Source: a virus
Lineage: Duplodnaviria > Heunggongvirae > Uroviricota > Caudoviricetes
Length of the DNA: 19,882 nucleotides
Direction: 5' to 3' (one strand)
IMG/VR virus record: IMGVR_UViG_2548876858_000016
Positions 1,659 to 19,882 of this stretch are shown piece after piece; positions within the stretch are counted from its first letter, which is position 1; every line of letters begins with the position of its first letter. A program made the translations under genes and the position numbers. Under the pieces are notes generated by a model. It was not told the DNA's origin. It saw only the letters and a program-made list of their open reading frames with translations, and made no database searches.

Positions 1659-1707
1659 CATGGCATAGGTATCGAACTCACCAAAACAATTATAGAGGAT
1701 GAGAAAA

Positions 1708-3657: not shown

Positions 3658-3659
3658 AT

Positions 3660-4947: not shown

Positions 4948-4954
4948 CTTATAT

Positions 4955-4973: not shown

Positions 4974-4987
4974 TAAGGGAAAAGCAG

Positions 4988-5347
4988 ATGAACACTCATA
5001 ATACTCAACCGCAAATAATGAACTATGACCCAAATCTGACGTTATGCGGACGCATGGCAAAACAAACCGTTCGATTAATTTTCGGGCTATGGGAATACCG
5101 CGAAACATTCGAAGTCACTGTCGGTGGCAACCTGACCGGACTCGATGTTATCAGTTGCGCTATTGAAAGCCTGTACGAAACGCTGCCTTATGAAGAAGTC
5201 GAGGATGAGCGCGATATCATCGCCACCATTAATATCGGCGGCGTGAAATGCAAGGATGAAAACTTGATCGGAGAGCTATGGCTTGCCGGAATGCTTATCT
5301 CAGCAGAAATTATCAGTATTGAACCCGCTACAAACATACGGCTCTGA
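4988..5347 (+). CDS. Hypothetical protein (119 aa)
   Basis: Track ORF; AAGGG SD 8 nt upstream. Confidence 0.5.
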   Translation: MNTHNTQPQIMNYDPNLTLCGRMAKQTVRLIFGLWEYRETFEVTVGGNLTGLDVISCAIESLYETLPYEEVEDERDIIATINIGGVKCKDENLIGELWLAGMLISAEIISIEPATNIRL

Positions 5348-5378
5348 AGTTCTCACAACTCAGGGAACAGGAGAAAAA

Positions 5379-5621
5379 ATGTTCGCTTTGATTAATCAAG
5401 GGCAACTGTATACCGACAGTGCCGGTTACCCGGTAAAAATTATTCGCTGCATAAATAATATCGTGTTGTACAGAAGAATGGATGGGCGAACACAGTCGGT
5501 AAAAATAAACGATTTTAATGAACTGTTTGAACGGATCGATCACCAGGAATACCGACAAATTCTGGCAGAAACAGAGCAGGAAGCTCATCTGAAAAAATTA
5601 CGAGCCATGAAAAGGAAGTAA
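5379..5621 (+). CDS. Hypothetical small protein (80 aa)
   Basis: Internal ATG of track ORF 5283..5621, with AGGAGA SD ~5 nt upstream. Confidence 0.5.
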   Translation: MFALINQGQLYTDSAGYPVKIIRCINNIVLYRRMDGRTQSVKINDFNELFERIDHQEYRQILAETEQEAHLKKLRAMKRK

Positions 5622-5624
5622 AGA

Positions 5625-5771
5625 ATGAATAAAGCATTTGAACGATGGGTCCACCAGCGTTACGGCAATCGCTATGACCTGACACGAGATGTTGACGGTT
5701 TCTACTGTCGTGAAATTGTGAAACGAATGTTTGAAGTGTGGTGCCACTGCCGTGGGCTGAGTGTTGTGTGA
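5625..5771 (+). CDS. Hypothetical small Cys-containing protein (48 aa), not in ORF track
   Basis: My translation: MNKAFERWVHQRYGNRYDLTRDVDGFYCREIVKRMFEVWCHCRGLSVV, stop TGA at 5769-5771. AGGAAG SD ~8 nt upstream; fills the gap between neighbouring genes in the same orientation. Confidence 0.35.
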   Translation: MNKAFERWVHQRYGNRYDLTRDVDGFYCREIVKRMFEVWCHCRGLSVV

Positions 5772-5779
5772 GGTAATGC

Positions 5780-6016
5780 ATGGGCAATGTGATTCAACTG
5801 GCTCCCAATGAATGGGTTTGTGAAAGCGTTCTAATCGCAATTACCGGGCTCAAACCAGGCACAATTCTTCGGGCCCGGAAAGAATGCTGGATGGTTGGAA
5901 GAGAGTATATTCACGTATCACCAGACGGTAATCCAAAGCCTTCCAGTGAATGTATGTATAACAGAAAAGCAATAGATGCCTGGGTTGCTTCAATGAAAAA
6001 CAAACAACCTGGGTGA
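5780..6016 (+). CDS. Excisionase-like (Xis-type) small DNA-binding protein
   Basis: 78-aa ORF immediately upstream of the integrase; EW...R...W...GREY pattern reminiscent of lambda-type Xis; GAGGT SD. Confidence 0.55.
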   Translation: MGNVIQLAPNEWVCESVLIAITGLKPGTILRARKECWMVGREYIHVSPDGNPKPSSECMYNRKAIDAWVASMKNKQPG

Positions 6017-6071
6017 TTTAATGCCATGAAGTATGTAAGCTCGTATCGCTCTTGGGTGTCTGGAGGTATCA

Positions 6072-7385
6072 ATGGATAAAGTCAAATATCCAACAGGCGT
6101 CGAAAACCACGGTGGCACATTACGCATCTGGTTTAATTTTAAAGGTAAACGTGTCAGGGAAAATCTTGGTGTCCCTGACACTGCCAAGAACAGGAAGATC
6201 GCCGGAGAGCTGCGGACATCTGTATGTTTTGCTATTCGTACAGGAAACTTTGATTACGCTGCGCAGTTCCCTGACTCTCCTAACCTCAAGGCTTTTGGGG
6301 TAAGTAAAAAAGAAATTACGGTGAAGGAACTTGAAGAAAAGTGGCTGGATCTGAAACGAATGGAAATCTCTGCAAATGCATTCAATCGCTATGAATCCGT
6401 TGCAAGAACGATGGTTCCGAAAATTGGAGGCAGCAGACTGGTGTCATCGGTAACTAAAGAGGAATTGCTGTATATCAGGAAAGATTTGCTGACCGGATAT
6501 CAGAATTCAACGAAAAACAAAGCAGCAGCAAAAGGACGGAGCGTCGTTACTGTAAATTATTACATGACGACAATCGCTGGAATGTTTCAGTTTGCTGCAG
6601 ATCACGGTTACCTAGAAGCAAATCCTTTCCAGGGAATTAAGCCTCTTAAAAGAGCCAGGGCAGAGCCAGATCCGCTAACTCGTGACGAATTTATTCGCCT
6701 GATAGATGCTTGCCGACATCAGCAGACGAAAAACCTGTGGTCATTGGCTGTGTACACAGGAATGCGTCACGGTGAACTGGTCTCCCTGGCCTGGGAAGAT
6801 ATCGATCTGAAAGCAGGAACTATTACTATCAGGCGCAATTATACGAAACTCGGTGAGTTCGCTCTACCTAAAACTGAAGCAAGTACAAACAGGGTTGTGC
6901 ATCTTATCCAGCCCGCTATCAGTGTCCTGAAAAATCAGGCTGAAATGACAAGACTGGGTAAGCAGCACCACATCAAGGTTCAACTACGTGAATATGGGCG
7001 TTCAGTGAATCATGAATGTACTTTCGTATTTAACCCCCAGGTGGTTAGAAAAAGCAAACAGGTCGGTTTTATCTACAAGGTAGATTCTATTGGCGACTCA
7101 TGGGAAACAGCCATTAAGCGTGCGGGCATCAGGCACCGGAAAGCATACCAGTCACGACACACTTATGCGTGCTGGTCATTATCTGCCGGAGCAAACCCAA
7201 GCTTCATTGCCAGCCAGATGGGCCATGCAAGTGCCCAGATGGTGTTCAATGTATACGGAGCATGGATGACTGACAGTAATGCAGAACAGATCGCAATGCT
7301 GAATCAGAAGCTGGCAGATTATGTCCCAATGATGTCCCATGGTCACCAAAGTGACACAAGAGACTTATTAAAATCAGTGGGTTAG
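6072..7385 (+). CDS. int: Tyrosine site-specific integrase (phage integrase family)
   Basis: 437-aa ORF; GGAGGT SD; C-terminal catalytic-domain pattern (TGMRHGEL, HxxR-type segment SRHTYA, catalytic Tyr in NVYGAWM); stop lies directly at the junction with the host-gene fragment. Confidence 0.9.
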   Translation: MDKVKYPTGVENHGGTLRIWFNFKGKRVRENLGVPDTAKNRKIAGELRTSVCFAIRTGNFDYAAQFPDSPNLKAFGVSKKEITVKELEEKWLDLKRMEISANAFNRYESVARTMVPKIGGSRLVSSVTKEELLYIRKDLLTGYQNSTKNKAAAKGRSVVTVNYYMTTIAGMFQFAADHGYLEANPFQGIKPLKRARAEPDPLTRDEFIRLIDACRHQQTKNLWSLAVYTGMRHGELVSLAWEDIDLKAGTITIRRNYTKLGEFALPKTEASTNRVVHLIQPAISVLKNQAEMTRLGKQHHIKVQLREYGRSVNHECTFVFNPQVVRKSKQVGFIYKVDSIGDSWETAIKRAGIRHRKAYQSRHTYACWSLSAGANPSFIASQMGHASAQMVFNVYGAWMTDSNAEQIAMLNQKLADYVPMMSHGHQSDTRDLLKSVG

Positions 7386-7399
7386 CCTTCAATACCCGT

Positions 7400-7813
7400 C
7401 ATGTTAACTGTGTGGAGGGTAACACCACGCTTTATGCCCTGCCGAAACCCGAGGTTGTCCTGCGCTGGCGTGAGCAGACCACAGATGACTTCCGCTTCTG
7501 TTTTAAGTTTCCGGCGACTATTTCGCATCAGGCAGCATTACGGCATTGCGATGATTTAGTGACTGAATTTTTGACCCGCATGTCACCGTTGGCTCCGCGC
7601 ATTGGACAATACTGGCTGCAACTGCCTGCCACATTCGGCCCACGGGAGCTGCCTGCGCTTTGGCATTTTCTCGACTCTCTTCCCGGCGAATTTAATTATG
7701 GTGTGGAAGTCCGCCATCCACAGTTTTTCGCCAAAGGGGAAGAGGAACAAACGATTAATCGCGGTTTACATCAGCGCGGCGTTAATCGGGTGATTTTCAT
7801 CAGACACGTTTAA
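7400..7813 (+). pseudogene. yecE: Internal fragment of a DUF72-family host gene (yecE-like), disrupted on both sides
   Basis: Frame encodes ~135 aa (VEGNTTLYALPKPEVVLRWREQTTDDFRFCFKFP...GVEVRHPQFF...) with no plausible start. Assignment to DUF72/yecE is from memory of the family. The fragment sits between the integrase and the serine recombinase. Confidence 0.5.
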
Positions 7814-7914: not shown

Positions 7915-9438
7915 ATGAAACGTGTAATCAGCTACATCAGATTCAGTTCTGAGCGACAAGCCAAAGGCGACTCACTACGCAGACAGTCTAAGATGGTTAA
8001 TGACTGGCTTAAGGCTCATCCTGAGTACTACCTTGACCAAGATTTATCCTTCCGTGATTTGGGGGTGAGTGGGTTCACTGGTAAGCACTTGAAAGGTGGC
8101 TTAGGTGACTTTTTAACCGCTATCGAGAAAGGGCTTGTTAAAGCTGGTGATACGCTCTTGATAGAATCTCTTGACCGTCTGTCACGTCAAGATGTAGACC
8201 AAGCAAGTGAGCTACTCAGAAACATTCTTCGCTCTGGTGTAGATGTGGTCACCTTGTCCGATGGTGAACATTACACACGAGAATCTCTTAAAGACCCGTT
8301 AGCTCTGATTAAAAGCATTCTGATAATGCAGCGGTCGCATGAGGAGAGTTTGAGGAAGTCTGAGCGTATACAAGCTGCATGGAACCGTAAAAAAGAACTC
8401 ATCTCTGAAGGTATCAAGATTTCTAAACGTTGTCCTGCATGGCTTAAGCTTAATGATGACCGTAAAAGCTTCTCTGTAATCCCTGAGAAAGTGGAGACTG
8501 TGAAGAGGTGCTTTCAGCTACGGTTAGAGGGTAAGTCTATCTGGGAGATTGTCAGGACTCTTAATGATGAAGGTCACCAGACGCTTAACCAATATAAAGC
8601 GGGTTCATTTGGTCAAACCTCAGTACAAGACCTTCTGAAAAATCGCTCTGTAATTGGTTACTTCACACCTAAAGGCTGTGAAGAGATAGCTGATTATTAT
8701 CCTGCAATTATAGATGAAACAACATTCTACAAAGTCCAGCAACTATCATATGCTCGTTACGGTAGAAAACCTGCTTCAGATAAGCCAATGGCTGTGAATC
8801 TTTTCAAAGGTGTTATCCGTTGCTCTGAATGTGGTCATGCTCTGATTATCACAGGCTTTAGCGATACAAGAAACGGGATTTATCGCTGTCCCCTTCGTAA
8901 TGAAAACCGTTGTAGTGCTAAAGGGCTGTCACGTAAGCAAACCGATGGTACATTGCTTACCCTGCTATCTCGTCTTGACCGATTTGATAGCGATACGACG
9001 AATACCATCGATACACTGAAGTTACACCGTGAACACATCTCAAGCAATATTGAGAAGCTGGTACAGCTATCACTTGAAATTGAAGATTTGTCAGCTATTA
9101 CCAGCAAGCTAAAACAACTAAAGAATGAGCTATCACAGGTTGATGCGGATATCGAGAAGGAGACACAACGCCTTAAATCTATTGATGTGGGGTGTTTGTC
9201 TGATTGTGACTTGACTACAAAGGCGGGAAGGATTGAAGCACAACTGATAATCAAAAGTGCTGTTAAAGAGGTCGTTTTAAATACTGCTAAACGTCGATGT
9301 AAAGTGACTTTTCACAACGGTAAGGTAATTGACCTACCAATAACAGAAAACCCCTCAGACAACGTTACAGAGGCTATACAGTCGCTTTCTGAAGTCACTG
9401 AGAGGGGTTTAATAGATGTTGATGAGGTTATCATATAG
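7915..9438 (+). CDS. Large serine recombinase (resolvase catalytic domain + recombinase domain + zinc-ribbon)
   Basis: 507-aa ORF; N-terminal YIRFSSERQ with catalytic Ser; Cys cluster CSECGH...YRCPLRNENRC; C-terminal coiled coil. Confidence 0.85.
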   Translation: MKRVISYIRFSSERQAKGDSLRRQSKMVNDWLKAHPEYYLDQDLSFRDLGVSGFTGKHLKGGLGDFLTAIEKGLVKAGDTLLIESLDRLSRQDVDQASELLRNILRSGVDVVTLSDGEHYTRESLKDPLALIKSILIMQRSHEESLRKSERIQAAWNRKKELISEGIKISKRCPAWLKLNDDRKSFSVIPEKVETVKRCFQLRLEGKSIWEIVRTLNDEGHQTLNQYKAGSFGQTSVQDLLKNRSVIGYFTPKGCEEIADYYPAIIDETTFYKVQQLSYARYGRKPASDKPMAVNLFKGVIRCSECGHALIITGFSDTRNGIYRCPLRNENRCSAKGLSRKQTDGTLLTLLSRLDRFDSDTTNTIDTLKLHREHISSNIEKLVQLSLEIEDLSAITSKLKQLKNELSQVDADIEKETQRLKSIDVGCLSDCDLTTKAGRIEAQLIIKSAVKEVVLNTAKRRCKVTFHNGKVIDLPITENPSDNVTEAIQSLSEVTERGLIDVDEVII

Positions 9439-9452
9439 TTGAGATTCTATCG

Positions 9453-10226
9453 TCAGTAGCGCTTATTCGGATTCACCGAAAACTTCTTCAAAGTACTACC
9501 TGTACCAGCATTATTAAGCACCTTTGAAGCTTGCTCATTAGCGGCATCTGAGAAGGTGCTTTTTCCGTTCTTAACTCTGACATTCCTACCACAATTGATA
9601 CGGGCTTGAAGTTGCTCATTAGAAAGTTCACTCGTAGAGCGATTATATAGCTCCTGACACATCAACATACCGTTACCTAAGCTTGTCGTAGTGTTCCCTG
9701 TATTCTTTTTGCTGGTAGCACCACCATCATTTGTAGTAGCTGTCTTTCCAGTAGCAGCCGAAATATCAGTTTGACCCACAATAGCTTTAAAGTTAATTTC
9801 CTGAAAAGTTAGCTGGATTCTTAGACCATTTGAAATACCAACATCTTTAGAGGCTTTAAAGCTTGTAATAATGGAGTCATCAATTTTAATACCATCTTTA
9901 CAGATGACCGAAATAATCTGCTTCTGGTCACGCCAGTTTTCAAGAGTGTCGATGAAGTTCTCCACCAGCTTATTATCTCTTGAGATAAGGATACTACCGG
10001 ATTCACCAACCACAACCACACCACTGATTGAAATAGTTCTTGGTGAACGCATTACATTATCTGTTACAGTCTGCCCTGATTGCATATTTTGAGTGGTCAC
10101 CATCATAGGGCTGTCATATTCCATCTGTTCAGTTGCTGATAAGGTTAAGAAATTATCTGGCTGTCCTTGTAGATGGAAGTAAACACCATCTTTACCAGTG
10201 TAACGAAGCTGACTAGTGTAAATCAT
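9453..10226 (-). CDS. Hypothetical protein (257 aa); possible tail component by position downstream of the tape-measure-like gene
   Basis: Track ORF; GGAGA SD 5 nt upstream of ATG; convergent with the recombinase gene. No domain recognised. Confidence 0.55.
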
Positions 10227-10309
10227 TAAATTCTCCTTTGATTTCAGAGACTTAGTGTATTTTAATCATTTTTAACCAAGCCTTTGATATATAAGTGTTT
10301 TCTCTGTTA

Positions 10310-10376
10310 AGCGTGAGCTACGTAAAAAATAATTTTTGGTGGGTATATCTGTTCAGAAGATTTCACGTAGCACACG
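10310..10376. promoter_or_regulatory. Copy A of a duplicated intergenic regulatory element (AAGCGTG..TACGTAAA..GTGGGTAT..CAGA..TTTC..ACGTAGCACAC)
   Basis: Shares ordered conserved blocks with 12501-12594; arms CGTGAGCTACGT / ACGTAGCACACG form an 11/12 inverted repeat; lies upstream of gene 9453-10226. Confidence 0.5.
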
Positions 10377-10389
10377 GATATATAAGAAA

Positions 10390-12480
10390 TCATTCTTCCT
10401 CTGGATAGCTTGAACTTAAGAGCATATCCTGCGTGAACTGGTCATTAGCTGATTGATTGAAAGTAAAGAAAGCTGGTTCATCCGGTCTAACAATTGCTTC
10501 ACCAGTGATATTAACTGACAAGGGCTTCTTAGCTTCTACTGTTAAAGCATCAACCTTGCGTGATAGCTCACTAATAGTCATTGCAAGTTGAGCATTACTA
10601 TTAACCATGTCACCCGTAATAGCTGGTGGAGTTGATTGTGTGTTATTTACGAAGTTATTCATCGGTTCTTGGGAGTTAGCAATTTTATCAGCTGCACTAC
10701 TAAACCAACCTTTAACATCGTCCATAGTGAACACTGGTTTAAGTCCAGACTCTTTAGCTAGCTCTGGTAATTTAGCTTGTGCTTCCATTCGTTCAGGTGT
10801 AGAAGCTAATCTTTCATAACCTGCATAGATAGCACTACCAGCTAATAGCATATTCATAGGGTTTAGTCTTGATGGTTTCCCATTCTTTCTATTCACGTTA
10901 TCCGCTGTGGTATCAGCGACCTGACCTAATCTTGTGATAGCAGTCATAAGCCCGTAAATACTTCTGGTTACACCAACAACTTTATTCACAGCAATAACAC
11001 CAGCCAAGACTTTTAAACTATTAATCAAGCCAGAACCTAAAGCATCAACTACTTTCTTTTGCTCATCGGTTAAACCACGATAAGCTAATGTCACCTCATC
11101 GAAGAATGCTCTTACCCTGTAGCTGATATCAGTCAATGAATCGACACCATGCGACATATCGCTCATCAAGCTACCAAGAGATTCACCAAGACTTTTACCA
11201 CTTCCACCAAGAGCGTTTAAAAGCGTTGTTAGGCTTCTTGTGAAATCTTGAAGACCATTTTCAGAACCTCTGAAGATACTATCAAGCGTGGTATTCCAAG
11301 AGTTTTTCAAGTTCCCTAGTTGTGCCTGTGTACTTTCTGAAATGGCTTTCCAGCCACCTTTAGCGGTGATTTGTCTATTCAGTTCCTGAGTGACCTTCTG
11401 AAGAGTATCGGCAGATTTTAAAGCCCCCTTCTTCATGGCATCAAATAATTCCTGTTCACTCTTTCCGGTTGCTTTAGCGAATACCTGAACCATACCAGGA
11501 ACAGCTTCAGCCAGTTGCCCCTTAAGCTCTTCAGCCATAATCTGACCCTTACCAGCCATCTGTGATAATGCTGTCAGTGCTCGCTTAATCTCTTCTTCAC
11601 TTCTCCCCATCAGACGAGCATAGCCAATCATATTTTTAAAAAGTTCTTCAGAACCTTGAATACCCATAGACTCTTTAGCTGAAGCACCAAAACCAGCAAA
11701 CTGTGATTGCAGTTCAGCGATATCTAAACCCGTTGTTTGAGCTAATGACTTTGTGAACTCTTTTACCTGACCTGCATCTTTATCAAATACGAAATCAATT
11801 GAACGCTCAGCACTTGCACGCTGTAAACCAATTTCCATAATCTTCTGATAACTGGCTAATACAGCCTGCATTGAGATAAATGCACCTGCTGTTTTAACTG
11901 CTGCTGAAGACAGGTTATCAAGACTATTAGCTGCTCTGTCAGCATTAATGCTGGTGGATGTATGACCTCTGGCTTTAGCAATTGCTTCTCTGACTGAAGC
12001 GTTTAACTGAGCTAACTTCTCATTGAATTTTGAAGAATCCATTGACCCGGCTTTAGCAGATAGCCCGTAAAACTGAGATTTGATGTATTTCTGCAAAATA
12101 GGGTCAAAGCCTTTTAGCTTAGACATATTAGCTGAGTAAGCCGCTGTGATTGCTCTGTTGCCGCTAATTAGTGGCTGTCTTGGCTGTCTAAGTGGCTTTA
12201 AAGTATCCTCAATTTCCGTTTTAATCTTAAACGCTCTAGTGTTTTTAAGACGCTGCTCAATCTTGTCAAAGGTCTTATTAAACTTCCTTTCAAGTTGCCC
12301 TAAAGAACTTGTCAGATTGCTGTCAAGTTGCTTGGTATCGACCTTAAACGCTCTATTCAAATTGCGTTCAATTCTTTGTGCTGACTGCAAAGCTGCCTTT
12401 TCAACTCTTTGCAGTCCCTTAATAACGTTTTCATTGAAGCCTAGCTCAACGATAAAACTATCAACTGTGAATTTGCTCAT
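10390..12480 (-). CDS. Phage tail tape-measure-like protein
   Basis: 696-aa ORF; central region (GSEELFKNMIGYARLMGRSEEEIKRALTALSQMAGKGQIMAEELKGQLAEAVPGMVQVFAKATGKSEQELFDAMKKG) matches the tape-measure core pattern; coiled-coil N-terminus; GAGGTG SD. Confidence 0.7.
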   Translation of the reverse strand: MSKFTVDSFIVELGFNENVIKGLQRVEKAALQSAQRIERNLNRAFKVDTKQLDSNLTSSLGQLERKFNKTFDKIEQRLKNTRAFKIKTEIEDTLKPLRQPRQPLISGNRAITAAYSANMSKLKGFDPILQKYIKSQFYGLSAKAGSMDSSKFNEKLAQLNASVREAIAKARGHTSTSINADRAANSLDNLSSAAVKTAGAFISMQAVLASYQKIMEIGLQRASAERSIDFVFDKDAGQVKEFTKSLAQTTGLDIAELQSQFAGFGASAKESMGIQGSEELFKNMIGYARLMGRSEEEIKRALTALSQMAGKGQIMAEELKGQLAEAVPGMVQVFAKATGKSEQELFDAMKKGALKSADTLQKVTQELNRQITAKGGWKAISESTQAQLGNLKNSWNTTLDSIFRGSENGLQDFTRSLTTLLNALGGSGKSLGESLGSLMSDMSHGVDSLTDISYRVRAFFDEVTLAYRGLTDEQKKVVDALGSGLINSLKVLAGVIAVNKVVGVTRSIYGLMTAITRLGQVADTTADNVNRKNGKPSRLNPMNMLLAGSAIYAGYERLASTPERMEAQAKLPELAKESGLKPVFTMDDVKGWFSSAADKIANSQEPMNNFVNNTQSTPPAITGDMVNSNAQLAMTISELSRKVDALTVEAKKPLSVNITGEAIVRPDEPAFFTFNQSANDQFTQDMLLSSSYPEEE

Positions 12481-12500
12481 TCATATTTTTCACCTCTTTA

Positions 12501-12594
12501 AGCGTGTTGTACGTAAATTCTATTTTTCAGTGTGGGTATTAGCTTTACAGATTTCATGAGGATAATTCTTATCCGAATCATCACGTAGCACACA
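12501..12594. promoter_or_regulatory. Copy B of the duplicated intergenic regulatory element, upstream of the tape-measure-like gene
   Basis: Same conserved blocks as 10310-10376 with a ~27-bp insertion; contains CACGTAGCACACAGGAT (12582-12598). Confidence 0.5.
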
Positions 12595-12622
12595 GGATTC
12601 GATAGAAGACTATCTCATATAC

Positions 12623-12663
12623 AAAAAAGGGAGAGCTACCGATGTCACTCGATAATCTCTCCC
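12623..12663 (-). terminator. Candidate intrinsic terminator on the minus strand (GGGAGAG / CTCTCCC stem, 21-nt loop, U6)
   Basis: 7-bp GC-rich stem at 12629-12635 / 12657-12663; on the minus-strand transcript it is followed by UUUUUU (plus-strand A6 at 12623-12628). Loop is long for a terminator. Confidence 0.4.
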
Positions 12664-12688
12664 GTTGATTTTTACCCAACCAATCTTT

Positions 12689-12892
12689 TTACCTAACCAG
12701 ATAATAATTACCATCTTCACCGACAATCTGACAATCACTTGGTAATTTATCAAGACACCATTTAGCGATTCTTCTGATTCTATTCTTTTGCTTAGAGGTG
12801 GATGATTTGATTCGTTTTGGTTTGTTGGGTTGTTCTTTCAATCGTTCACTAATTGCTTTAATAAGCTCATAGCGTTCTGTTAAATCAATCAT
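12689..12892 (-). CDS. Hypothetical small basic protein (67 aa)
   Basis: Track ORF; strong AGGAGGTG SD; Lys/Arg-rich centre (KPKRIKSSTSKQKNRIRRIAK). Confidence 0.5.
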   Translation of the reverse strand: MIDLTERYELIKAISERLKEQPNKPKRIKSSTSKQKNRIRRIAKWCLDKLPSDCQIVGEDGNYYLVR

Positions 12893-12916
12893 TCACCACC
12901 TCCTTTTAATTCATAG

Positions 12917-13657
12917 TTAAAGTGCCTTTGCATATTTCTGAGAAATCTTCACTAACTGCTCAATATCAGCCTGCATAGCAATTTTCTTCTGTGATTCATA
13001 TTCACTAACAAGCTCTTTCATAGTATCAAGCTCTTTTTTAAGCTTTTGCTTTAACTTATCCAGCTTATCGGAGTAATGCTTAGTCAGATTAGCTTCAGCT
13101 AACTGAAGAATCTCTTCATCTGTTTTGTTAGTCATCAGGATATATGAGCCTGTACCACGTGAAGCTTGTCTGACATCCATTAATCGAAAACCGTCAGGAA
13201 TACTTTGAAGCACTTTTGGAACATTCTCTCTTGCTGTACCGAAACCATTGTTGTAATTTCCTTCGTAATAGATAAACGGGTTTGTCTTAAGCTCATATTC
13301 AATATCATATTCTGAAGGTTTCTGAGTTTCTTCGAAGTTTTTGACAACATCATAAGCATTATCAAGCTTGATGCGCTGCTCTTTTAGTAGTGGATAGTAC
13401 TTCCTCTCAAGTGCAATCAGAGCTTCTGTCTTGCAAACATCAGTCATTTCCAGAGGCTCAGGATTGATATATTCAAGATTATTGGCTGGAACAATCTTTC
13501 GCAGCCTTTCTTTTTTGGCCTCTTCATCTGCAAGCTTGGCAATAATTTTGTGATAAGGTTTCATATGTGCATACTCATCTCCTTCATCAGTAAAATGCAA
13601 ATCATATGCACAAGGTTTTCTATCAACAATCGCTTCATGTTCATCACGGATAGACAT
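12917..13657 (-). CDS. Hypothetical protein (246 aa), charged with coiled-coil C-terminus
   Basis: Track ORF; GAGGAAAA SD ~9 nt upstream. Confidence 0.55.
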   Translation of the reverse strand: MSIRDEHEAIVDRKPCAYDLHFTDEGDEYAHMKPYHKIIAKLADEEAKKERLRKIVPANNLEYINPEPLEMTDVCKTEALIALERKYYPLLKEQRIKLDNAYDVVKNFEETQKPSEYDIEYELKTNPFIYYEGNYNNGFGTARENVPKVLQSIPDGFRLMDVRQASRGTGSYILMTNKTDEEILQLAEANLTKHYSDKLDKLKQKLKKELDTMKELVSEYESQKKIAMQADIEQLVKISQKYAKAL

Positions 13658-13692
13658 TATTATTTTTCCTCTTCTAAGATAATTTATGTTTC

Positions 13693-13774
13693 AGTTTTTA
13701 AAAAGCACACCTGACAGCCTACGAACTTAGAAGAGACTTAAAAGGCGGTTTGCCAAGTGCGCTTTTTAAAAGCT
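13693..13774. repeat. 18-bp inverted repeat (AGTTTTTAAAAAGCACAC ... GTGCGCTTTTTAAAAGCT, 16/18) with ~47-bp spacer
   Basis: Seen directly in the sequence, inside a 470-bp ORF-free gap between minus-strand genes. Confidence 0.6.
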
Positions 13775-14130
13775 GAAAAAGCCCTAGATAACTAAAACGC
13801 TATAAAGGGCTAAGGTGAAGAAATTAAAGAACATCCAAAGGATTCAATAACGAATGAACAAAGACTTTTTGAGATAGCCTATCTAGTGTGGGCTAAATAG
13901 GCCATGACGAAAAGCATTGCACCTTTCCAACTCAGAATAACTATCATTGATGTAGAATGATTAATAGTTTAATTCAGGAAGAGTTGCTCTCCCCTATTAC
14001 CATCATCTCATGCTTAAGGTTATTTGTCAACAGCTTTTAACAGATTGATAACATCAATTCTTATTTACTGTGTTACCCACCCAGCAACCAACAAATAAGC
14101 CAAGCAACGTCCAAGCAATTATTAAGCCCA

Positions 14131-14454
14131 TTAGTGAACCCTCACGGAATCCGTAACCAAAATATTATCGCTGTACAGGATTGTCACAGCACCTTTCAAA
14201 AATCGCTCTGGGGAAATACTGTATTTGTTCGTTTGCTCAATAACCAATCTTTTCATATTACTGTCTGTAATTGGTAACATCATTCGAGGCTCGTTAAACT
14301 CCACCGAGTGAATAAAGTCAGAGATGCTTTCCGCATTATCAGCCATTAACTCTAACAACTTATCAAAGTCAATGCTAACACCTACATCAGTGAAAGCCTG
14401 AATCATCATGGCGGTGTCGGTATCAATAAAAATCTGTAGTGGGAAATTATTCAT
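14131..14454 (-). CDS. Hypothetical protein (107 aa)
   Basis: Internal Met of track ORF 14131..14565 (MNNFPLQIFIDTDTAMM...), with AGGA SD 9 nt upstream. Confidence 0.5.
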   Translation of the reverse strand: MNNFPLQIFIDTDTAMMIQAFTDVGVSIDFDKLLELMADNAESISDFIHSVEFNEPRMMLPITDSNMKRLVIEQTNKYSISPERFLKGAVTILYSDNILVTDSVRVH

Positions 14455-14592
14455 TTTTAAAATCCTATAAAAACACATCTTAAATCTGCCAAAATAGCCA
14501 TTCTGAGGCCAGTAACCATGCGGGTTACAGAGGGAGTGAGACACCTTAGTAATAGGGTAGCTCATCTTTGAGTCTCACTCATTCTCACAGAC

Positions 14593-14979
14593 TTACACAG
14601 ACGCTTTAATCTTGTAGTATTGACTACGTGATAAGCCGTATTTCTCAGAAATATAACTTTGTGATTGTCCTTTGGTGATTGCATCAATGATTAAATCTTT
14701 ATCGTATCTGTTACCGTTGGCTTTGTGCTTGTCACTATTTTTAATAGAGTTGAAGTTCTCCATTAATTCAATGGCGTCTTTAAGGTCGCTTTCGTAAGCA
14801 TAATCAAAACCTCTGATAAACTCGAAATCACCATTATCTTTTTGTGCTTCAGCCCAGATATCAAATCTTGAGGCTAATTGCTGGTGGGTAAACTTGGGCT
14901 TATTGGTTTGTGTTACGTCTTTCCAGACCTTACCGTCAAATCTTACCAAATGGTCACGATGCTTATAAAAATCATACAT
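14593..14979 (-). CDS. Hypothetical protein with C-terminal HTH (128 aa)
   Basis: Track ORF; GGAGG SD; C-terminal ITKGQSQSYISEKYGLSRSQYYKIK resembles a resolvase/Hin-type or small-terminase-type HTH. Start overlaps the upstream stop (TAATG). Confidence 0.55.
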   Translation of the reverse strand: MYDFYKHRDHLVRFDGKVWKDVTQTNKPKFTHQQLASRFDIWAEAQKDNGDFEFIRGFDYAYESDLKDAIELMENFNSIKNSDKHKANGNRYDKDLIIDAITKGQSQSYISEKYGLSRSQYYKIKASV

Positions 14980-15257
14980 TAAACCTCCATTGCTAATTTG
15001 TGAATTTTGATACTTAGTAATCTTGCTAAATCCAGTCCAAAGGCATTTAGAGCCTTCAGACTATCAAGGTCATCTTGCTTAATCCTGATATGGTGTCTTG
15101 CTGCCTCTAAACGACTATTAAGCAAATCCTGCTCGTTAATATCACGGTTAATTGCAAGCTTCATCACTGCTGAGTGTGGCAGACCTGTAATGTTTTTGAT
15201 TCGGTTAAGTTCGTCAAAGGCTGTCTTTGTAACTCTGGTTAAAGTGTGCTTAGTCAT
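14979..15257 (-). CDS. Hypothetical protein (92 aa)
   Basis: Track ORF; tightly packed between neighbours in one minus-strand operon. Confidence 0.5.
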   Translation of the reverse strand: MTKHTLTRVTKTAFDELNRIKNITGLPHSAVMKLAINRDINEQDLLNSRLEAARHHIRIKQDDLDSLKALNAFGLDLARLLSIKIHKLAMEV

Positions 15258-15260
15258 TAT

Positions 15261-15824
15261 TTAAAATCCTTCTGCTTGTGCGTACACGTCAAATTCAAAG
15301 TCTGGCTCACTGCTTGTAAGACTGATATTACCAACGGTAATATGATGCTCGACAATACCAATTAACTTTGCGCACATCACAGCAAGTAATGCGCAATAGG
15401 CATCGCTTGGTAACTCATGGCTTAACCTGGTTGCCTGACGCTGGAGATGGTTTGTCACGGTAGCTGAGTTAATTTCATCAAGATTCTTTAGAAGATAAAA
15501 CAATTTCTTGTTGTATTTTGGGTGCCCCTCACTTCTGCAAAATCCGATAAGAATGTCGTCAAGCTTGCTCGGTAATTGCTCGTAGCTGTCAAAGTTAGCC
15601 AGATAATTCTTGATGCTGTTCTTTGTTGTTTTGCGTACTGACATATAACGACTCCTCGGTGTAATTGCCCGAATTACTTCGTCAATGCCTTTGCGTTCTG
15701 CTCTGGTGAACTTGGGTGCTTCGTGGCTGGTGGGGGAGTTTGTGTAGCTGTAGGAGTTGTAGGAGTTGTATCTGTTACGTTGTCTCGATGCCTGAAGCAT
15801 CGCTCTAAATTCTCTGTCGTTCAT
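15261..15824 (-). CDS. Hypothetical protein (187 aa) with in-frame 9-bp tandem repeat
   Basis: Track ORF; AAGGA SD 11 nt upstream; GTAGGAGTT x2.3 at 15750-15770 encodes NSYNSYSY. Confidence 0.55.
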   Translation of the reverse strand: MNDREFRAMLQASRQRNRYNSYNSYSYTNSPTSHEAPKFTRAERKGIDEVIRAITPRSRYMSVRKTTKNSIKNYLANFDSYEQLPSKLDDILIGFCRSEGHPKYNKKLFYLLKNLDEINSATVTNHLQRQATRLSHELPSDAYCALLAVMCAKLIGIVEHHITVGNISLTSSEPDFEFDVYAQAEGF

Positions 15825-15910
15825 TCATAAGCTAGTCCTTATAATTGTTAATTCTCTGTTAACTTATATAGACAATACTAGCATTTTCAAAGACTAATGT
15901 CAAGCATTTT

Positions 15911-15940
15911 TTAACATTTCATTAACATCTGTGGTATAAT
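15911..15940 (+). promoter_or_regulatory. Candidate sigma70 promoter with extended -10 (TTAACA-18-TGgTATAAT)
   Basis: TATAAT at 15935-15940 preceded by TG at 15932-15933; TTAACA at 15911-15916. Confidence 0.5.
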
Positions 15941-16122
15941 GGTTCTATGGGGAGAGTAAAATATAAAGGCGTGGCTATGAGAGTGGTCATATGGTTATTG
16001 CATTGCACACAGACCTCTTCAATCGCTCTGTAACGAGTTAAATGGCCTCTTCAGGTCAACATATAAGGTCAGGTACTTTTTTGTGTCAGAATGCGATTGA
16101 GAGCGTCTTACAAGGAAAACTA

Positions 16123-16299
16123 ATGGTAAATCTCCCTCCTGAGCTGGGGTCACCTGATGTATGGGCTGGTGGAGGTGTTGGGCTGATTGCAGGTCTGCTA
16201 CTTCGCTACGTCCTCGTCAGAGTGCTTGTTGTCTTTAAACTGTTCGGTCGTACATGGACGCTTGACCTTAAGGATAACGACCACACAGAACCCCGTTAA
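16123..16299 (+). CDS. Candidate small single-TM protein (58 aa)
   Basis: Internal ATG of track ORF 16042..16299, with AAGGA SD 6 nt upstream; hydrophobic segment VGLIAGLLLRYVLVRVLVVF; downstream of the 15911-15940 promoter. Confidence 0.35.
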   Translation: MVNLPPELGSPDVWAGGGVGLIAGLLLRYVLVRVLVVFKLFGRTWTLDLKDNDHTEPR

Positions 16300-16340
16300 A
16301 CTCCCTTCAAAACCCCCTGTACGTGATGGTATAGGGGTAT

Positions 16341-16357
16341 CTTTAGCATTTTGTGCT
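16341..16357. promoter_or_regulatory. Copy 1 of 17-bp dyad motif CTTTAGCAWWWWGTGCT
   Basis: CTTTAGCATTTTGTGCT; internal dyad AGCA-N5-TGCT; same motif recurs at 17471-17487 and inverted at 17501-17517. Confidence 0.45.
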
Positions 16358-16525
16358 ATCTATTAATAAATAGCTTGACATAACCGGAAAACTGAATCTA
16401 TCAAGTATTCACCCCTCTGACAGTAATTTCTAAAAATGCTTATTTTTCAATGAGTTGTAATTAGCCAATATAAAGGACTGACAAGACTCTTCACAGAGAA
16501 CTTTCAAGACTCACTAAGACACAAG

Positions 16526-16562
16526 GCGATAACCCCAGACAGGGAGAGCCTCCTTCTTAACC
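16526..16562. repeat. Direct repeat copy A (GCGATAACCCCAGACAGGG...TCTTAAC)
   Basis: ~75% identical to 16696-16732; contains a CCCC-N5-GGG mini-hairpin. Confidence 0.5.
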
Positions 16563-16695
16563 GACTTCTTAAACAATCTTTACAGACCCCCGTTCACCAG
16601 TCTCAATATTTTTATTTCTCGCTCTTCGTTTTTTGCTCGTTTCTATTATTGAGGGGGTTTGAAAAACCTCTGTAAAATAACCCTTCCAGTAAAAA

Positions 16696-16732
16696 GCGAA
16701 TAACCCCAGAAAGGGGAAATCGCATCTTTAAC
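16696..16732. repeat. Direct repeat copy B (GCGAATAACCCCAGAAAGGGG...TCTTTAAC)
   Basis: Pairs with 16526-16562; contains the perfect hairpin CCCCagaaaGGGG. Confidence 0.5.
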
Positions 16733-16763
16733 ATTCTCGTAATCAGTGCTCTATATGAGAACT

Positions 16764-17432
16764 TCAGCCCAACCTTTGAACAATCCTGTAAGTGGTGCTT
16801 AGAGGTATTCTTAGCGATTCTGCGATGCTCTTGATGGGTTGCCCTTGGTCATACATTTTAATCAACCTGTCAAGCGTCTGTGCATCGTGCATATGAGGTC
16901 TTCCACGTAAACCACCCCTGTTAACCACGGCAAGTAAAAGCATTGTGTCACCACAATAGATTGTCTGGGTAACTTCAACTTTCGGTTTGCGGGGTGTGTT
17001 CCTGTATATCAAAACGCAACTTGGAAACGGTGAGCGCACTACAACACCTCTCTTTCCTGCTGGTGGAAGGTATTTGACTGCTCGGTGTAACGTTCGAATC
17101 TCATGCAGGAAGGGGTTTGTATATACACACCGAAGCCAGTAAGTTGTCTTTGACCTGAGCGGAACCAGACATACACACACATCAGCTTCAGGGGCTTTTA
17201 AGAGGAACTTTTCAGCCATGCTAAACGGCGGGTTAACGAAGACCCGTTCACCAACCCATGATTGATTGTGAATATCATCGGTGAACCGTGGCAACAATGC
17301 GTCATACTCAGTTGCAGCACCATCTAGACTGAAGTTAAACTCACGATGCAGGTTATGAAATAAACGATACGGTGTACGCCAGTCATCAGAACCACCATGA
17401 TAACGACCAACATTGATTATTGGATGCGACAC
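16764..17432 (-). CDS. Phage Dam-family N6-adenine DNA methyltransferase fused to a C-terminal resolvase/Hin-type HTH
   Basis: 222-aa ORF with GTG start (AGAGGGG SD ~10 nt upstream). N-terminal ~150 aa shows DDWRTP...F.F.LDGAA...NPPFS...SPFPS, which I recognise as the phage Dam MTase pattern; C-terminal GRPHMHDAQTLDRLIKMYDQGQPIKSIAESLRIPLSTTYRIVQRLG resembles a serine-recombinase HTH. Confidence 0.7.
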   Translation of the reverse strand: MSHPIINVGRYHGGSDDWRTPYRLFHNLHREFNFSLDGAATEYDALLPRFTDDIHNQSWVGERVFVNPPFSMAEKFLLKAPEADVCVCLVPLRSKTTYWLRCVYTNPFLHEIRTLHRAVKYLPPAGKRGVVVRSPFPSCVLIYRNTPRKPKVEVTQTIYCGDTMLLLAVVNRGGLRGRPHMHDAQTLDRLIKMYDQGQPIKSIAESLRIPLSTTYRIVQRLG

Positions 17433-17470
17433 AAGCGAAGCGCCCCTCTTAGTATATTTCTTAATCGTCT

Positions 17471-17517
17471 CTTTAGCATTTAGTGCTTTTTGTTAAGTTT
17501 AGCACTTTTTGCTAAAG
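17471..17517. promoter_or_regulatory. Inverted pair of the 17-bp dyad motif, upstream of the Dam-HTH gene; candidate operator
   Basis: CTTTAGCATTTAGTGCT (17471-17487) and reverse complement of CTTTAGCAAAAAGTGCT (17501-17517), 13-bp spacer; 40-85 bp upstream of the GTG start; a minus-strand TATACT -10 candidate lies at 17451-17456. Confidence 0.45.
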
Positions 17518-17944
17518 ACAAAAGCATTGACAAAATGGTAGGATTGTTCACATAGCCCTTACTTAACAGACTCTTAAGAGCTTTGAAACAGCCTGTTTAA
17601 CAAGGTCACTACCTCTGGTCTTATCGTTCCCTTCTTTCTAGGTAGTCATCTGTTAAGAACTTTTCAGTTTTATTCTTAAGATAATTGTTAAGATGATACT
17701 CTCCCTTCGGGTTATATCGTATCTCTCCTCCCGTTAAATATCCCTTCACAGTCAGACTAAATAACACCTGTGTAGTTTCTTGGTAGAATCTTTCAAGGTA
17801 ACTTAACTCTGAGTTTATGAAGTTGACCTATGAGATAGACTCTACCGAATCTGTTAGTCAATTGTTGCTTAGGTGCTGCTAAGGCTTACTTAGTGGGAAG
17901 AGAGGGAATATGTGACCATAGGAACCCCTCCTGTTAAAAGCTTC

Positions 17945-17972
17945 TTGACGTTACTATCTCGATATGTATAAT
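17945..17972 (+). promoter_or_regulatory. Near-consensus sigma70 promoter (TTGACG-16-TATAAT)
   Basis: TTGACG at 17945-17950, 16-bp spacer, TATAAT at 17967-17972; no credible ORF downstream. Confidence 0.5.
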
Positions 17973-17979
17973 GGCTTAC

Positions 17980-18148
17980 TGTACTAGGTTTACTTCCAAA
18001 GCAACCAAGCACACTCTCTATGGCAGTGTCCAGCGAGGTAAGGTCGTGTAGGGTGCGGTTCGGTGGGGTAAGGTTTGGTGCGGTATGGGTGGATTGTCGT
18101 AGCCACGTTAAAAATCGACTTATAGGGACTCTTTCGGGAGTCCTTTTT
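17980..18148 (+). ncRNA. Candidate ~170-nt small RNA bounded by promoter and intrinsic terminator; G-rich internal tandem repeat
   Basis: Starts ~7 nt after the -10 and ends at the 18125-18148 terminator; contains GGTAAGGT...GGTGCGGT twice (18046-18095); the only overlapping ORF (18020-18298) reads through the terminator and looks non-coding. Confidence 0.4.
18125..18148 (+). terminator. Rho-independent terminator (GGACTC-tttcgg-GAGTCC + T5)
   Basis: 6-bp stem at 18126-18131 / 18138-18143, T-run 18144-18148; plus-strand specific. Confidence 0.6.
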
Positions 18149-18298
18149 AGTTTGTATAAAATCTGTACAGTAACTTTTCAGAGTCTGAAAATTTTTATAA
18201 ATATCGTAGTAACCCCTCTACATTCCCCTTCACCGATAATTTTCAAAAATATCTACACTCAATTGATGGCTGTTAAGTACCCCAGATTCACGATATAG

Positions 18299-18308
18299 CC
18301 CCCCCCCC
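18299..18308. repeat. Homopolymeric C10 tract
   Basis: Ten consecutive C in intergenic DNA, immediately upstream of a promoter-like TTGCAA-16-TATAAC (18310-18337). Confidence 0.9.
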
Positions 18309-19048
18309 TTTGCAAAAGCAGTTAAAATATCTATAACCAACCATTGACTTTCTTCATGATATCTGTTTAGCCCCACCTCAATAAGCCATCATCACACATC
18401 AAAGCATCTATCAAGAAGGTTTAACCTATCAATAGCTGTAACATTTTATAGTTCTGTGAAGTCCTATCCAGTTTTCTCTGTAACAGCTACAAACTTCTGT
18501 GACCTTATGTGTCAATGACTTATAAGACATGCTCTCAAGGTGCTGTATAGCCTCTTATCAGCCAATACACAAAACCCTTATAAATCAGTACTGATATGTA
18601 TACAGTATGTTTTTAACATAATAGCTGTTTTACGCACTAATAAGCACCTACGTAGATTCTGTATAGAGATTAAGATGTCTCTAAGTGATTTTTTAAGAGG
18701 AGATACGAAGGAACTATAACCATCACTTCATAACTTTCACGTAGGTAACTATTAAGTAGGTTGATAGTCACTTTGAGGGAATATTGATAGTGACCAACTG
18801 CATAGACACCGTTATATAGCCCTGTATATAGCACTATATGTAGTGTCTGGAGAGGGACGACTAACACGATATAGTTTACCCTGAAAAGAGGATTTACAGA
18901 TTCTCTATACATTTCAATAAGTTATGATAAAAAGGGGCTATGTCGATACTGTATAGAATCTGTGTAGGATTGCATAGATACTTGGAAAAATACCGTTAAA
19001 TTGCATAGGTACTAACCTGTTTATGTCCTGTTATTTACAGGCATAGCA

Positions 19049-19882
19049 TTATTGGTTAATTAATTCATCCGACTCTATATCATTACCTTTTTCTTTTTCC
19101 TTTTTAATTTTAGCCTCTACCATATCGAACATTTTCATTGTCTGTGATGAAGTTAGCTCTTTCTTTTGTCGTAGCGCGTTACGTATGGTAGAAGCTTCAA
19201 TATCAGAAACTGTTAAAAGTTCTTCTACCCTACTCTTCAATTGCTGTAATGAACGGCTATTATCAACTTTAAAGAAATCATCCATTACCTCAAGTGAGGC
19301 AACAATCAAATCCTGTAGTCTCTCTTTTTCTATCTCGATATTTTCAATGGTTTGTTTTTCTTTAGATACTAACTGCTTTAAATTATTAATTTCTTTCTGA
19401 ATCAGTTTCTTCTCTGTCTGTAGCTCTTCTGTGACCAGCTCTTCACGCTTACCACGCTCTACTTCCGCTTTAATATCAGCATCAATTTTAGCATTTTCTT
19501 TCTCTTCTTCTCTGGCAGCCCGAACCTTTAACCCCGTTAACCTGATTGAATCCAAGTATTCTTTTTCCTTTGTAAGATAAACATTTTCATTGTGTTTATC
19601 TGTAGCCCATTTTTGAGCAAGAGAAAGTAACCATTGAGCATAAGGAGTAATAACAGCTAGCACACCTCCAAAAAAGACAGGAGCAAGCAGATAATGAGCG
19701 TAAAAATATTCCTGAGATAGTATATAATCTATTCGAAACTTAACAGGCGCATCACTCATAAAGAGCATTGCTAAGTTAGGCCAGTTGAACCATACCCATG
19801 CAAGAATGATATATCCCCATAATGGGCTTTTAATCCTATCGTTTATTGCTTGCATAGTAGAATCTAACCACCCATCACTCAT
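19049..19882 (-). CDS. Membrane-anchored coiled-coil protein (two N-terminal TM segments + long K/E-rich coiled coil); start at or beyond window edge
   Basis: Track ORF; hydrophobic segments LWGYIILAWVWFNWPNLAMLF and YLLAPVFFGGVLAVITPYAQWLL, then heptad-like K/E-rich sequence. The Met at 19880-19882 is the last codon in the window, so the true start may lie outside. Confidence 0.55.
   Translation of the reverse strand: MSDGWLDSTMQAINDRIKSPLWGYIILAWVWFNWPNLAMLFMSDAPVKFRIDYILSQEYFYAHYLLAPVFFGGVLAVITPYAQWLLSLAQKWATDKHNENVYLTKEKEYLDSIRLTGLKVRAAREEEKENAKIDADIKAEVERGKREELVTEELQTEKKLIQKEINNLKQLVSKEKQTIENIEIEKERLQDLIVASLEVMDDFFKVDNSRSLQQLKSRVEELLTVSDIEASTIRNALRQKKELTSSQTMKMFDMVEAKIKKEKEKGNDIESDELINQ

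Follow-up and report, generated by a model that had tools for sequence, protein, structure and literature searches.

An orphan phage-type adenine methylase fused to a recombinase-type DNA-binding domain, encoded near candidate marboxes at the edge of an enterobacterial island

The IMG/VR virus record IMGVR_UViG_2548876858_000016 (Caudoviricetes), a stretch of 19,882 nucleotides (nt) that we analysed as a whole and call the window, encodes a 222-amino-acid (aa) protein, Dam-HTH. This protein is a genuine, conserved fusion of a phage-type DNA adenine methylase (Dam, family PF05869) and a recombinase-type DNA-binding domain with a helix-turn-helix (HTH). Three copies of a 17-bp motif lie around its gene, which is located at the edge of a phage-like island. 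Judged from its sequence, the motif is most likely a site of the host regulators MarA, SoxS and Rob, that is a candidate marbox, and not a dedicated operator of the fused HTH. Taken together, we consider it fairly probable that an orphan N6-adenine methyltransferase (MTase) with a fused HTH sits at the island edge within a gene cassette, that the surrounding motif copies are marboxes, and that transcription around the cassette is wired to MarA, SoxS and Rob.

Architecture and conservation of Dam-HTH

The gene and its two domains are located as follows:

16764–17432, minus strand: Dam-HTH coding sequence, 222 aa, GTG start, TGA stop; corresponds to WP_029789581.1 in NZ_CP075462
16938–17432, minus strand: N6-adenine MTase domain, residues 1–165, with DDWRTP, LDGAA and NPPFS motifs; PF05869 and PHROG 111
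16764–16913, minus strand: serine-recombinase-type DNA-binding domain, residues 174–222, with a G177-R178-P179 arm followed by a three-helix HTH

An initial annotation, made from the letters alone, had proposed that a single 222-aa frame joins a phage-Dam-like catalytic region to a C-terminal resolvase-type HTH, and every part of this proposal held. The 222-codon frame (16764–17432, minus strand) contains no internal stop. The hmmscan check suggested at the time placed both domains above their Pfam cut-offs: Dam (PF05869) at residues 15–105 (E=1.1e-12; 48.4 bits versus a cut-off of 28.1) and HTH_7 (PF02796) at residues 177–217 (E=1.3e-6; 28.9 bits versus 23.8). PHROG 111 ('DNA methyltransferase') spans residues 15–163 (E=5e-24). 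Within NCBIfam, the equivalog cut-off of TIGR01712 (phage_N6A_met) was missed (38.7 versus 97.05 bits), and residues 15–82 alone could be aligned. Since Dam-HTH scores so far below this cut-off, we regard it as a divergent subfamily. The catalytic domain of serine recombinases (PF00239) gave no Pfam match in Dam-HTH, the N-terminus of which is the MTase; the protein is therefore not a recombinase and cannot recombine DNA.

Structure prediction gave the same picture. In the AlphaFold model (pLDDT 73.8) an N6-adenine MTase fold precedes a C-terminal domain of three helices with local pLDDT values of 73–90. Using Foldseek, the MTase part matched the N6-adenine MTases 6irx, 3lkd, 7vs4, 7rfk and 6pbd, and the C-terminal domain aligned to the DNA-binding domain of Sin resolvase (2r0q chains C and D; probability 1.0, 30–32% identity, 60–63 columns). 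The top PDB sequence match of the C-terminus was likewise the Sin/Bin3 DNA-binding domain, GRP arm included. Among 19 family members, down to 40% identity, N67-P68-P69 of the catalytic motif NPPFS (residues 67–71) never varies and D37 hardly does; the arm G177-R178-P179 and further positions are likewise invariant. That is, the catalytic motif is intact and the recombinase-type arm is kept.

Among the island genes neighbouring Dam-HTH, domain searches and PADLOC detected neither a nuclease nor a defence-system domain, and PADLOC labelled Dam-HTH itself only as 'orphan methyltransferase'. Because no restriction partner is detectable, we consider Dam-HTH an orphan MTase, as the initial annotation had done on finding no restriction-endonuclease-like gene nearby. 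A gene for a 95-aa HNH protein lies about 2 kb from Dam-HTH in some island variants; the window does not carry it.

By BLAST, the gene is present in 213 of 5,426 complete E. coli genomes. More than 120 protein clusters of 220–222 aa in the protein database have the same architecture at 68–93% identity to the query, and the fusion is thus not an artefact of a frameshift between two genes. Searches of cluster representatives returned full-length relatives at 42–56% identity; among the matches listed, about seven clusters, all below 240 aa, share the full-length architecture. Most of the remaining matches are stand-alone methylases of 140–190 aa lacking an HTH, in line with the earlier remark that phage Dam proteins are usually short and carry no DNA-binding fusion. 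Relatives at 38–56% identity retain the fused architecture, and genomic loci together with a second protein search extend the fused family beyond E. coli to Klebsiella, Raoultella, Pseudocitrobacter, Pantoea and Erwinia. Identity to any phage-encoded PF05869 member is merely 27–36%.

The sole 'two-gene' annotation comes from strains ECE228 and ECE218 (locus L002), where a CGA-to-TGA change at codon 113 (R113*) inactivates Dam-HTH. This one nonsense mutation accounts for the split annotation, and RefSeq names a separate 'helix-turn-helix domain-containing protein' after it. Pairwise ratios of non-synonymous to synonymous substitutions (dN/dS) were 0.18–0.40 for the MTase part and 0.23–0.49 for the HTH part, with dS reaching about 1 within E. 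coli; purifying selection acts on both domains. Two HTH sequence types occur (RIVQRLG and RIAQRLS), and the HTH region is a recombination mosaic in which the recognition helices are nearly identical.

The fusion combines known kinds of protein. Phage-type Dam enzymes of PF05869 include those of phages T1, HP1 and VT2/933W. With this group Dam-HTH shares the WxTP, LDxAA and NPP(F/Y)S motifs, the small size, the orphan state and the location on a mobile element, but it differs by its C-terminal HTH_7 domain of about 55 residues. With small serine recombinases (Hin, Gin, gamma-delta, Sin) it shares the GRP arm followed by a three-helix HTH, but it lacks their catalytic domain, and neither hix- or res-like paired 12-bp half-sites nor evidence of inversion were found. 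A relationship to the non-specific MTases Hia5 and M.EcoGII was considered as well; the paper on Hia5 describes FxGxG/DPPY enzymes with a divergent target-recognition-domain region and gives no link to PF05869.

The inverted motif copies around Dam-HTH, its Hin-like HTH and the small serine recombinases adjoining it in some islands suggested that it might lie on an invertible segment. We rejected this idea: Dam-HTH keeps one orientation throughout the 17 E. coli loci inspected, the differing orientations of a neighbouring recombinase reflect two distinct proteins, and the recombinase genes are not flanked by hix-like repeats. This neighbour, a small serine recombinase (182–191 aa, Resolvase plus HTH_7), adjoins Dam-HTH in L133, L135, L136 and L141–L146 and occurs as two unrelated alleles in either orientation. 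Islands of the L133 type also encode an acidic-tailed winged-HTH protein of 322 aa that may be a replication initiator.

The 17-bp motif and its probable marbox identity

The motif CTTTAGCAWWWWGTGCT occurs at 16341–16357 (+), 17471–17487 (+) and 17501–17517 (−), that is three times in the window against 0.06 expected, and a count of three was reached in none of 200 shuffles. The upstream pair lies 39–85 bp ahead of the Dam-HTH start codon and the downstream copy 407 bp past the stop; in this respect the initial annotation was accurate. Its description of the motif as an AGCA-N5-TGCT dyad did not survive: the apparent dyad is a by-product of an asymmetric GCAC...TGCTAAA element that reads as a marbox. 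Segment 16576–17513, which holds Dam-HTH and the upstream pair, behaves as an exchangeable cassette, and the downstream copy belongs to the island backbone. Read as candidate marboxes, the three copies are:

16341–16359, minus strand: candidate marbox copy 1, reads ATAGCACAAAATGCTAAAG; 13/15 matches to the consensus defined below; part of the island backbone, not of the Dam-HTH cassette
17471–17487, minus strand: candidate marbox copy 2, reads GCACTAAATGCTAAA; 14/15 matches to gcactaattgctaaa; points toward Dam-HTH
17501–17517, plus strand: candidate marbox copy 3, reads GCACTTTTTGCTAAA; 13/15 matches to the consensus; points away from Dam-HTH

A candidate marbox was defined by at least 13 of 15 matches to the MarA consensus gcactaattgctaaa, derived from chromatin immunoprecipitation sequencing (ChIP-seq) by Sharma et al. 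2017 and used in this way in that study (PMC5684230). When the window was searched with the published 15-mer at up to two mismatches, exactly the three motif copies were returned (2, 1 and 2 mismatches) in 19.9 kb, where 0.06 matches were expected. Copy 1 has one mismatch to the 19-nt marbox consensus AYnGCACnnWnnRYYAAAY quoted in PMC3709825. The copies are one or two bases off sites bound by MarA in vivo and at 0.3 µM in vitro (pheP, ypeC, yeeF, ybaO and mar), copy 3 being one mismatch from the ypeC and yeeF sites. The ChIP-seq table for the enterotoxigenic E. coli strain H10407 contained no site with the motif-copy sequences. Compared by eye, consensus sites of sigma-54, Lrp, Fis, CRP and NtrC fitted the motif less well than the marbox and were set aside.

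The layout around copy 1 resembles that of a known MarA target. In the K-12 mar promoter a backward marbox (GATTTAGCAAAACGTGGCAT) is followed after 16 nt by TTGACT; copy 1 has the same order, with a backward marbox (CTTTAGCATTTTGTGCTAT), 15 nt and TTGACA. Thus the marRAB promoter and the island share boxes that match at 13–14 of 15 positions and, at copy 1, the succession of backward box, 15–16 nt and TTGAC(A/T). They differ in that the Dam-HTH boxes lie in a mobile island and not in the core stress regulon, and in that copies 2 and 3 show non-canonical geometry. Candidate signals near the cassette are:

16375–16404, plus strand: promoter-like TTGACA-18 nt-TATCAA, starting 15 nt after marbox copy 1; bases nearly invariant across loci
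17443–17456, minus strand: candidate −10 TATACT (17451–17456) and ribosome-binding site GAGGGG (17443–17448) of Dam-HTH, proposed from the sequence
17536–17544, plus strand: extended −10-like TGGTAGGAT, tentative candidate for a rightward promoter, 22 nt after the AAA of copy 3
16691–16723, minus strand: terminator-like hairpin and T-run, 41 nt after the Dam-HTH stop; GCGA..CCCC..GGGG..UCGC, then UUUUU

Copy 1 and the TTGACA 15 nt away would form a mar-promoter-like unit of the island backbone. Copies 2 and 3 appear to face outward in a divergent promoter region between Dam-HTH and a conserved rightward block. The candidate Dam-HTH promoter was missing from our promoter scan because its −35 element is poor. 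The block holding TGGTAGGAT is kept in islands that lack Dam-HTH; we call this rightward promoter tentative because its spacing is 1–2 nt longer than the 20–21 nt rule of the phage modules described next.

The same element was found in phages. Extended to (T)TTTAGCAAAAAGTGCTAT, it recurs two to four times per 12–15 kb in some phage contigs of our viral contig scan, and on the opposite strand, as ATAGCACTTTTTGCTAAAG, it fits both AYnGCACnnWnnRYYAAAY and gcactaattgctaaa. The copies are intergenic in the T1-like Veterinaerplatzvirus vB_EcoS-12210I (L203/L276). Modules of the form ATAGCACTTTTTGCTAAA-20-21 nt-TATAGT are present in these two loci and in about 20 other viral loci (L166, L176, L177, L186, L243, L248 and others). 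A TAnnnT hexamer lies exactly 20 or 21 nt past the box in 31 of 48 ATAGCAC-type phage sites, and other offsets occurred zero or one time. Class II MarA/SoxS/Rob promoters reportedly consist of a forward box at a fixed distance of 20–21 nt to the −10 element and lack a −35 element (Martin et al. 1999). This arrangement suggests that T1-like phages use host MarA, SoxS or Rob for some of their promoters. No HTH_7 homologue was found within about 7 kb of the phage copies. Literature searches with the motif string returned nothing relevant; a link between mobile elements and MarA/SoxS/Rob was likewise absent from the literature found, no search having been aimed directly at it.

Several points weigh against the marbox interpretation. 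Sites matching the degenerate consensus are common in genomes and most of them are non-functional (PMC5684230), so that our argument rests on the high-stringency match together with promoter geometry. This geometry is itself imperfect: copy 2 is 15 nt from TATACT, no convincing canonical distance to a −10 or −35 element; copy 3 is 22 nt from TAGGAT versus 20–21 nt in the phage modules; and copy 1, read leftward, has TACAGG instead of TAnnnT at the class II position. Near the homologues in Pantoea, Erwinia, Pseudocitrobacter and Raoultella we found no marbox with 12 or more of 15 matches. In addition, Hin-type domains, as in the Hin-hix complex, read a major-groove hexamer and an adjacent A/T tract, and the shape of the motif, TTTAGC followed by WWWW (TTTAGC-AAAAA), is the type of half-site that a GRP-arm domain of this kind could read.

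The last point favours the initial proposal that the fused HTH_7 domain binds the motif, either for autoregulation through the upstream inverted pair or to direct methylation or occupancy to the three sites. We looked at how motif and gene are distributed, examining 17 E. coli loci with Dam-HTH and inspecting two islands without it (L003 and L004). The downstream copy at 16341 is unchanged in 13 of the 17 loci and one base off in another (L002); each of the 15 backbone loci, among them L003 and L004, has it without any change. At least three alleles alternate upstream of Dam-HTH; copies 2 and 3 are part of one of them, which was found by BLAST in 52 genomes versus 213 for the gene, about a quarter. 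An identical protein, P0071, occurs with the pair in L141, L143 and L144 and without it in L142, L145 and L146. Both HTH sequence types were found with and without the pair, and a co-variation of HTH type with the motif was thus rejected. Since pair and gene are decoupled in their distribution, their co-occurrence does not tie the motif to Dam-HTH.

All of this argues against binding of the motif by the fused HTH, which we regard as unlikely and for which the initial annotation finds no support. The motif also fits an independently defined site of another protein family, the AraC-type activators MarA, SoxS and Rob with two HTHs each, it recurs in the T1-like phages noted above, and with 17 bp it is too short for two Hin-type domains of about 12 bp each. 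What speaks for such binding, besides the half-site shape, is the position of the pair, which overlaps the candidate −35 region of Dam-HTH, the invariant GRP arm shared with Hin and Sin, and the precedent of self-repressing MTase-HTH fusions. Enzymes of the M.SsoII, M.EcoRII and M.MspI type are C5 MTases with a fused autoregulatory HTH at the N-terminus; they are part of restriction-modification pairs, and those of the M.SsoII type repress their own promoters. Control of restriction-modification systems by C proteins is described for C.PvuII (PMC2175313). Dam-HTH resembles the M.SsoII-type and C-protein systems in combining an MTase polypeptide with a sequence-specific HTH and repeats in its own promoter region. 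Unlike the M.SsoII type it is an N6-adenine MTase, its HTH is C-terminal and of the recombinase type, and no endonuclease accompanies it; unlike in either system, its promoter repeats are probably explained by another protein family. These fused MTase-HTH regulators are hence a loose precedent.

The motif might also be merely marbox-like and read by another factor, such as a protein of T1-like phages or of the island, which we hold to be quite unlikely. Chromosomal marboxes vary far more than the copies in phages and in the island, as would fit a more sequence-specific reader of the latter, and conserved flanks (TTT..., ...TAT) reach past the 15-bp core. However, these flanks belong to the 19–20 bp marbox (A-Y-n before GCAC; AAA-Y after), the fixed distance to a −10 element that lacks a −35 partner matches the class II geometry, and no AraC-type or other shared regulator candidate was found among the island proteins. 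Finally, the three copies could be inert remnants of promoter modules that entered through recombination with T1-like phages. Such a history would suit the strongly mosaic region, where several upstream alleles alternate and segment 16576–17513 is exchanged as a cassette, and copy 1 lacks the TAnnnT hexamer that phages have 20–21 nt away. Yet copy 1 and its TTGACA do not vary among 15 loci with flanks that diverge by 10–25%, the pair is 96–100% conserved in 50 of the 52 genomes, and a high-scoring marbox (13/15) appears again 365 nt upstream of the Klebsiella Dam-HTH homologue. We consider inert remnants very unlikely. A site for MarA, SoxS or Rob is most likely because the copies are near-consensus marboxes, copy 1 shows a mar-like layout, and the element recurs in T1-like phages and is decoupled from the gene.

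Further sequence features were observed around the motif copies. A hairpin left of copy 1 (16314–16337; CCCCTGTACGTGATGGTATAGGGG) is exactly inverted in strain AMA1167 (L004, 9013–9036; CCCCTATACCATCTCGTACAGGGG), and this inversion puts TATAGG instead of TACAGG 20 nt from the marbox. The stretch 16405–16560 contains a unit of about 90 bp (CTGACAGTAATTTCTAAAAATGCTTATTTTTCAATGAGTTGTAATTAGCC...) that is present in one to three tandem copies, depending on the island. Two related hairpin units (ATAACCCCAGA(C/A)AGGG...) follow the Dam-HTH stop, at 16691–16732 and 16529–16561, and the first of them resembles a terminator of this gene. In Raoultella and Klebsiella islands a 32-nt direct repeat (CCCATCACGGCGCTAAATGG...) lies upstream and just downstream of the operon of a 146-aa gene and Dam-HTH (L270, 7444–7475 and 8893–8924; L268, 8765–8774); it is a different repeat at the same relative positions as the motif. 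A cross-genus candidate site for the HTH, GC(A/G)C(T/A)AAATG, was noted near the homologues of Pantoea piersonii, Raoultella and Klebsiella; the pattern is post hoc and marginally significant, and we take it as a hint only.

The yecE island and its Felix O1 kinship

The window derives from an E. coli chromosome: over a 1.3-kb query (16300–17600) it is 99.5% identical to E. coli NT1F10. In this and other strains an island of about 12 kb splits yecE, and it occupies 7915–19882 of the window. Its recognisable genes, apart from Dam-HTH, are:

7915–9438, plus strand: large serine recombinase
9453–10226, minus strand: Dit-like baseplate gene
10390–12480, minus strand: tape-measure gene

The tape-measure gene is followed by a run of small genes without assigned function, Dam-HTH, a gene-free stretch of 1.6 kb and a 277-aa gene. 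The tape-measure and Dit-like genes are the sole recognisable structural genes of this island, which has its own large serine recombinase; its small size, own integrase and incomplete equipment with structural and replication genes fit a phage satellite. Both point to the same phage: the tape-measure protein matches Felix O1 ORF67, and the Dit-like protein is 72% identical to ORF68, the gene after the tape-measure gene (83% at the nt level).

Island variants are located at yecE or beside kch/yciI in E. coli. The backbone block 16300–16500 is present in about 8% of complete E. coli genomes, O157:H7 included; O157:H7 and other islands lack the cassette 16576–17513 and carry a gene with an AP2 domain farther right. 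In Pantoea the Dam-HTH homologue lies beside cmoA/cmoB, ahead of a g187 homologue and a tape-measure gene; it stands first or second from the island edge in Pseudocitrobacter, Klebsiella and Raoultella. Dam-HTH is conserved in a family of Enterobacterales islands, phage-like and about 12 kb long, and lies at their attachment-site edge.

The gene-free region shows similarities to Felix O1-like phages as well. Segments 17597–17639, 17696–17726 and 18163–18201 match a non-coding gap of Felix O1 (12.3–13.9 kb), including the palindrome TTTTCAGAGTCTGAAAA, and the hairpin at 17696–17726 differs from its O157:H7 counterpart by two compensatory pair differences. A unit at 17945–18145 (+) comprises a strong promoter-like TTGACG-16-TATAAT, about eleven GGTNN repeats (18030–18090), a hairpin whose loop UAGCCACGUUAAAAAU is conserved, and a second, terminator-like one (18124–18145). 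Compensatory changes were seen in its stems GTCG/CGAC, GGTAG/CTACC, GTCTC/GAGAC and GGCAG/CTGCC, and the 5-nt periodicity of the GGTNN repeats recalls binding sites of TRAP-type ring proteins. Within this unit, 18019–18119 is 75–81% identical to unannotated DNA by the ligase gene in about 130 Ounavirinae phages, with three copies in ECP2307. Rfam returned no family at the gathering threshold in the window and none at E<=1 in 15800–19100, and megablast of 15800–18400 against phage and plasmid collections gave no match. In the genomes of Felix O1 and ECP2307 the 17-bp motif had just matches with two or three mismatches, which is chance level.

Two further observations concern other parts of the window. 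Between the 187-aa gene and the plus-strand open reading frame 16123–16299, two overlapping divergent promoter-like sites close to consensus are located at 15875–15940 (minus strand, TTGACA-17-TAGTAT; plus strand, TTAACA-18-TATAAT; each with a TG). A second element occupies positions 1–7813 at the same locus, with a cI/LexA-like repressor (872–1564), an SPFH protein (4120–4947) and a tyrosine integrase (6072–7385). The latter abuts the 5' fragment of yecE (7412–7813), and the two elements thus stand in tandem. yecE is a known integration site of Stx phages (PMC5592225).

Possible roles of Dam-HTH and its island

We propose that host stress activators, or constitutive Rob, would drive or modulate transcription around the cassette, as apparently holds for the marbox-20-21 nt-TATAGT modules of T1-like phages. 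The Dam-HTH methylase would then modify DNA adenines, and the fused HTH would provide the DNA anchoring or sequence targeting that is missing from the minimal PF05869 MTase family.

The island has a large serine integrase and tail genes akin to those of the strictly lytic myophage Felix O1. It may therefore target Felix O1-like phages (Ounavirinae), either as a PLE-like satellite or as an anti-phage element. PLEs are satellites of Vibrio cholerae that live as parasites of the lytic myophage ICP1 (PMC9040626 and PMC13595925). The yecE island is likewise small and chromosomal, with a large serine integrase, mostly unassigned genes and ties to a virulent myophage. It differs in having no sequence homology to PLE and in carrying helper-like tape-measure and baseplate genes as well as the methylase-HTH fusion; a satellite nature is suggested by its sequence kinship to Felix O1-like phages. 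Literature searches returned nothing relevant on the island, on fusions of PF05869 with an HTH or on satellites of Felixounavirus/Ounavirinae phages.

A more specific and unlikely scenario is that the yecE island is a satellite, or a dedicated parasite, of virulent Felix O1-like (Ounavirinae) phages, with Dam-HTH as its conserved early gene. The HTH-targeted methylase would either mark or protect satellite DNA, or methylate adenines in marbox-type promoters. If methylation did take place inside such promoters, Dam-HTH would couple the MarA/SoxS/Rob regulon to satellite activation and form a self-contained writer/reader switch.

PF05869 comprises minimal methylases with little or no target-recognition domain, and a natural HTH fusion would show how specificity is added to them; it could also be a template for targeted writers of N6-methyladenine. 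In the inspected islands the tail genes are those of a phage group that is strictly lytic and serves in therapy and typing, which may bear on the efficacy of Felix O1-type phages. Reading the motif as a marbox recasts the question of regulation and suggests that mobile elements, the island and T1-like phages alike, plug into the MarA, SoxS and Rob regulators of the host's stress and antibiotic response.

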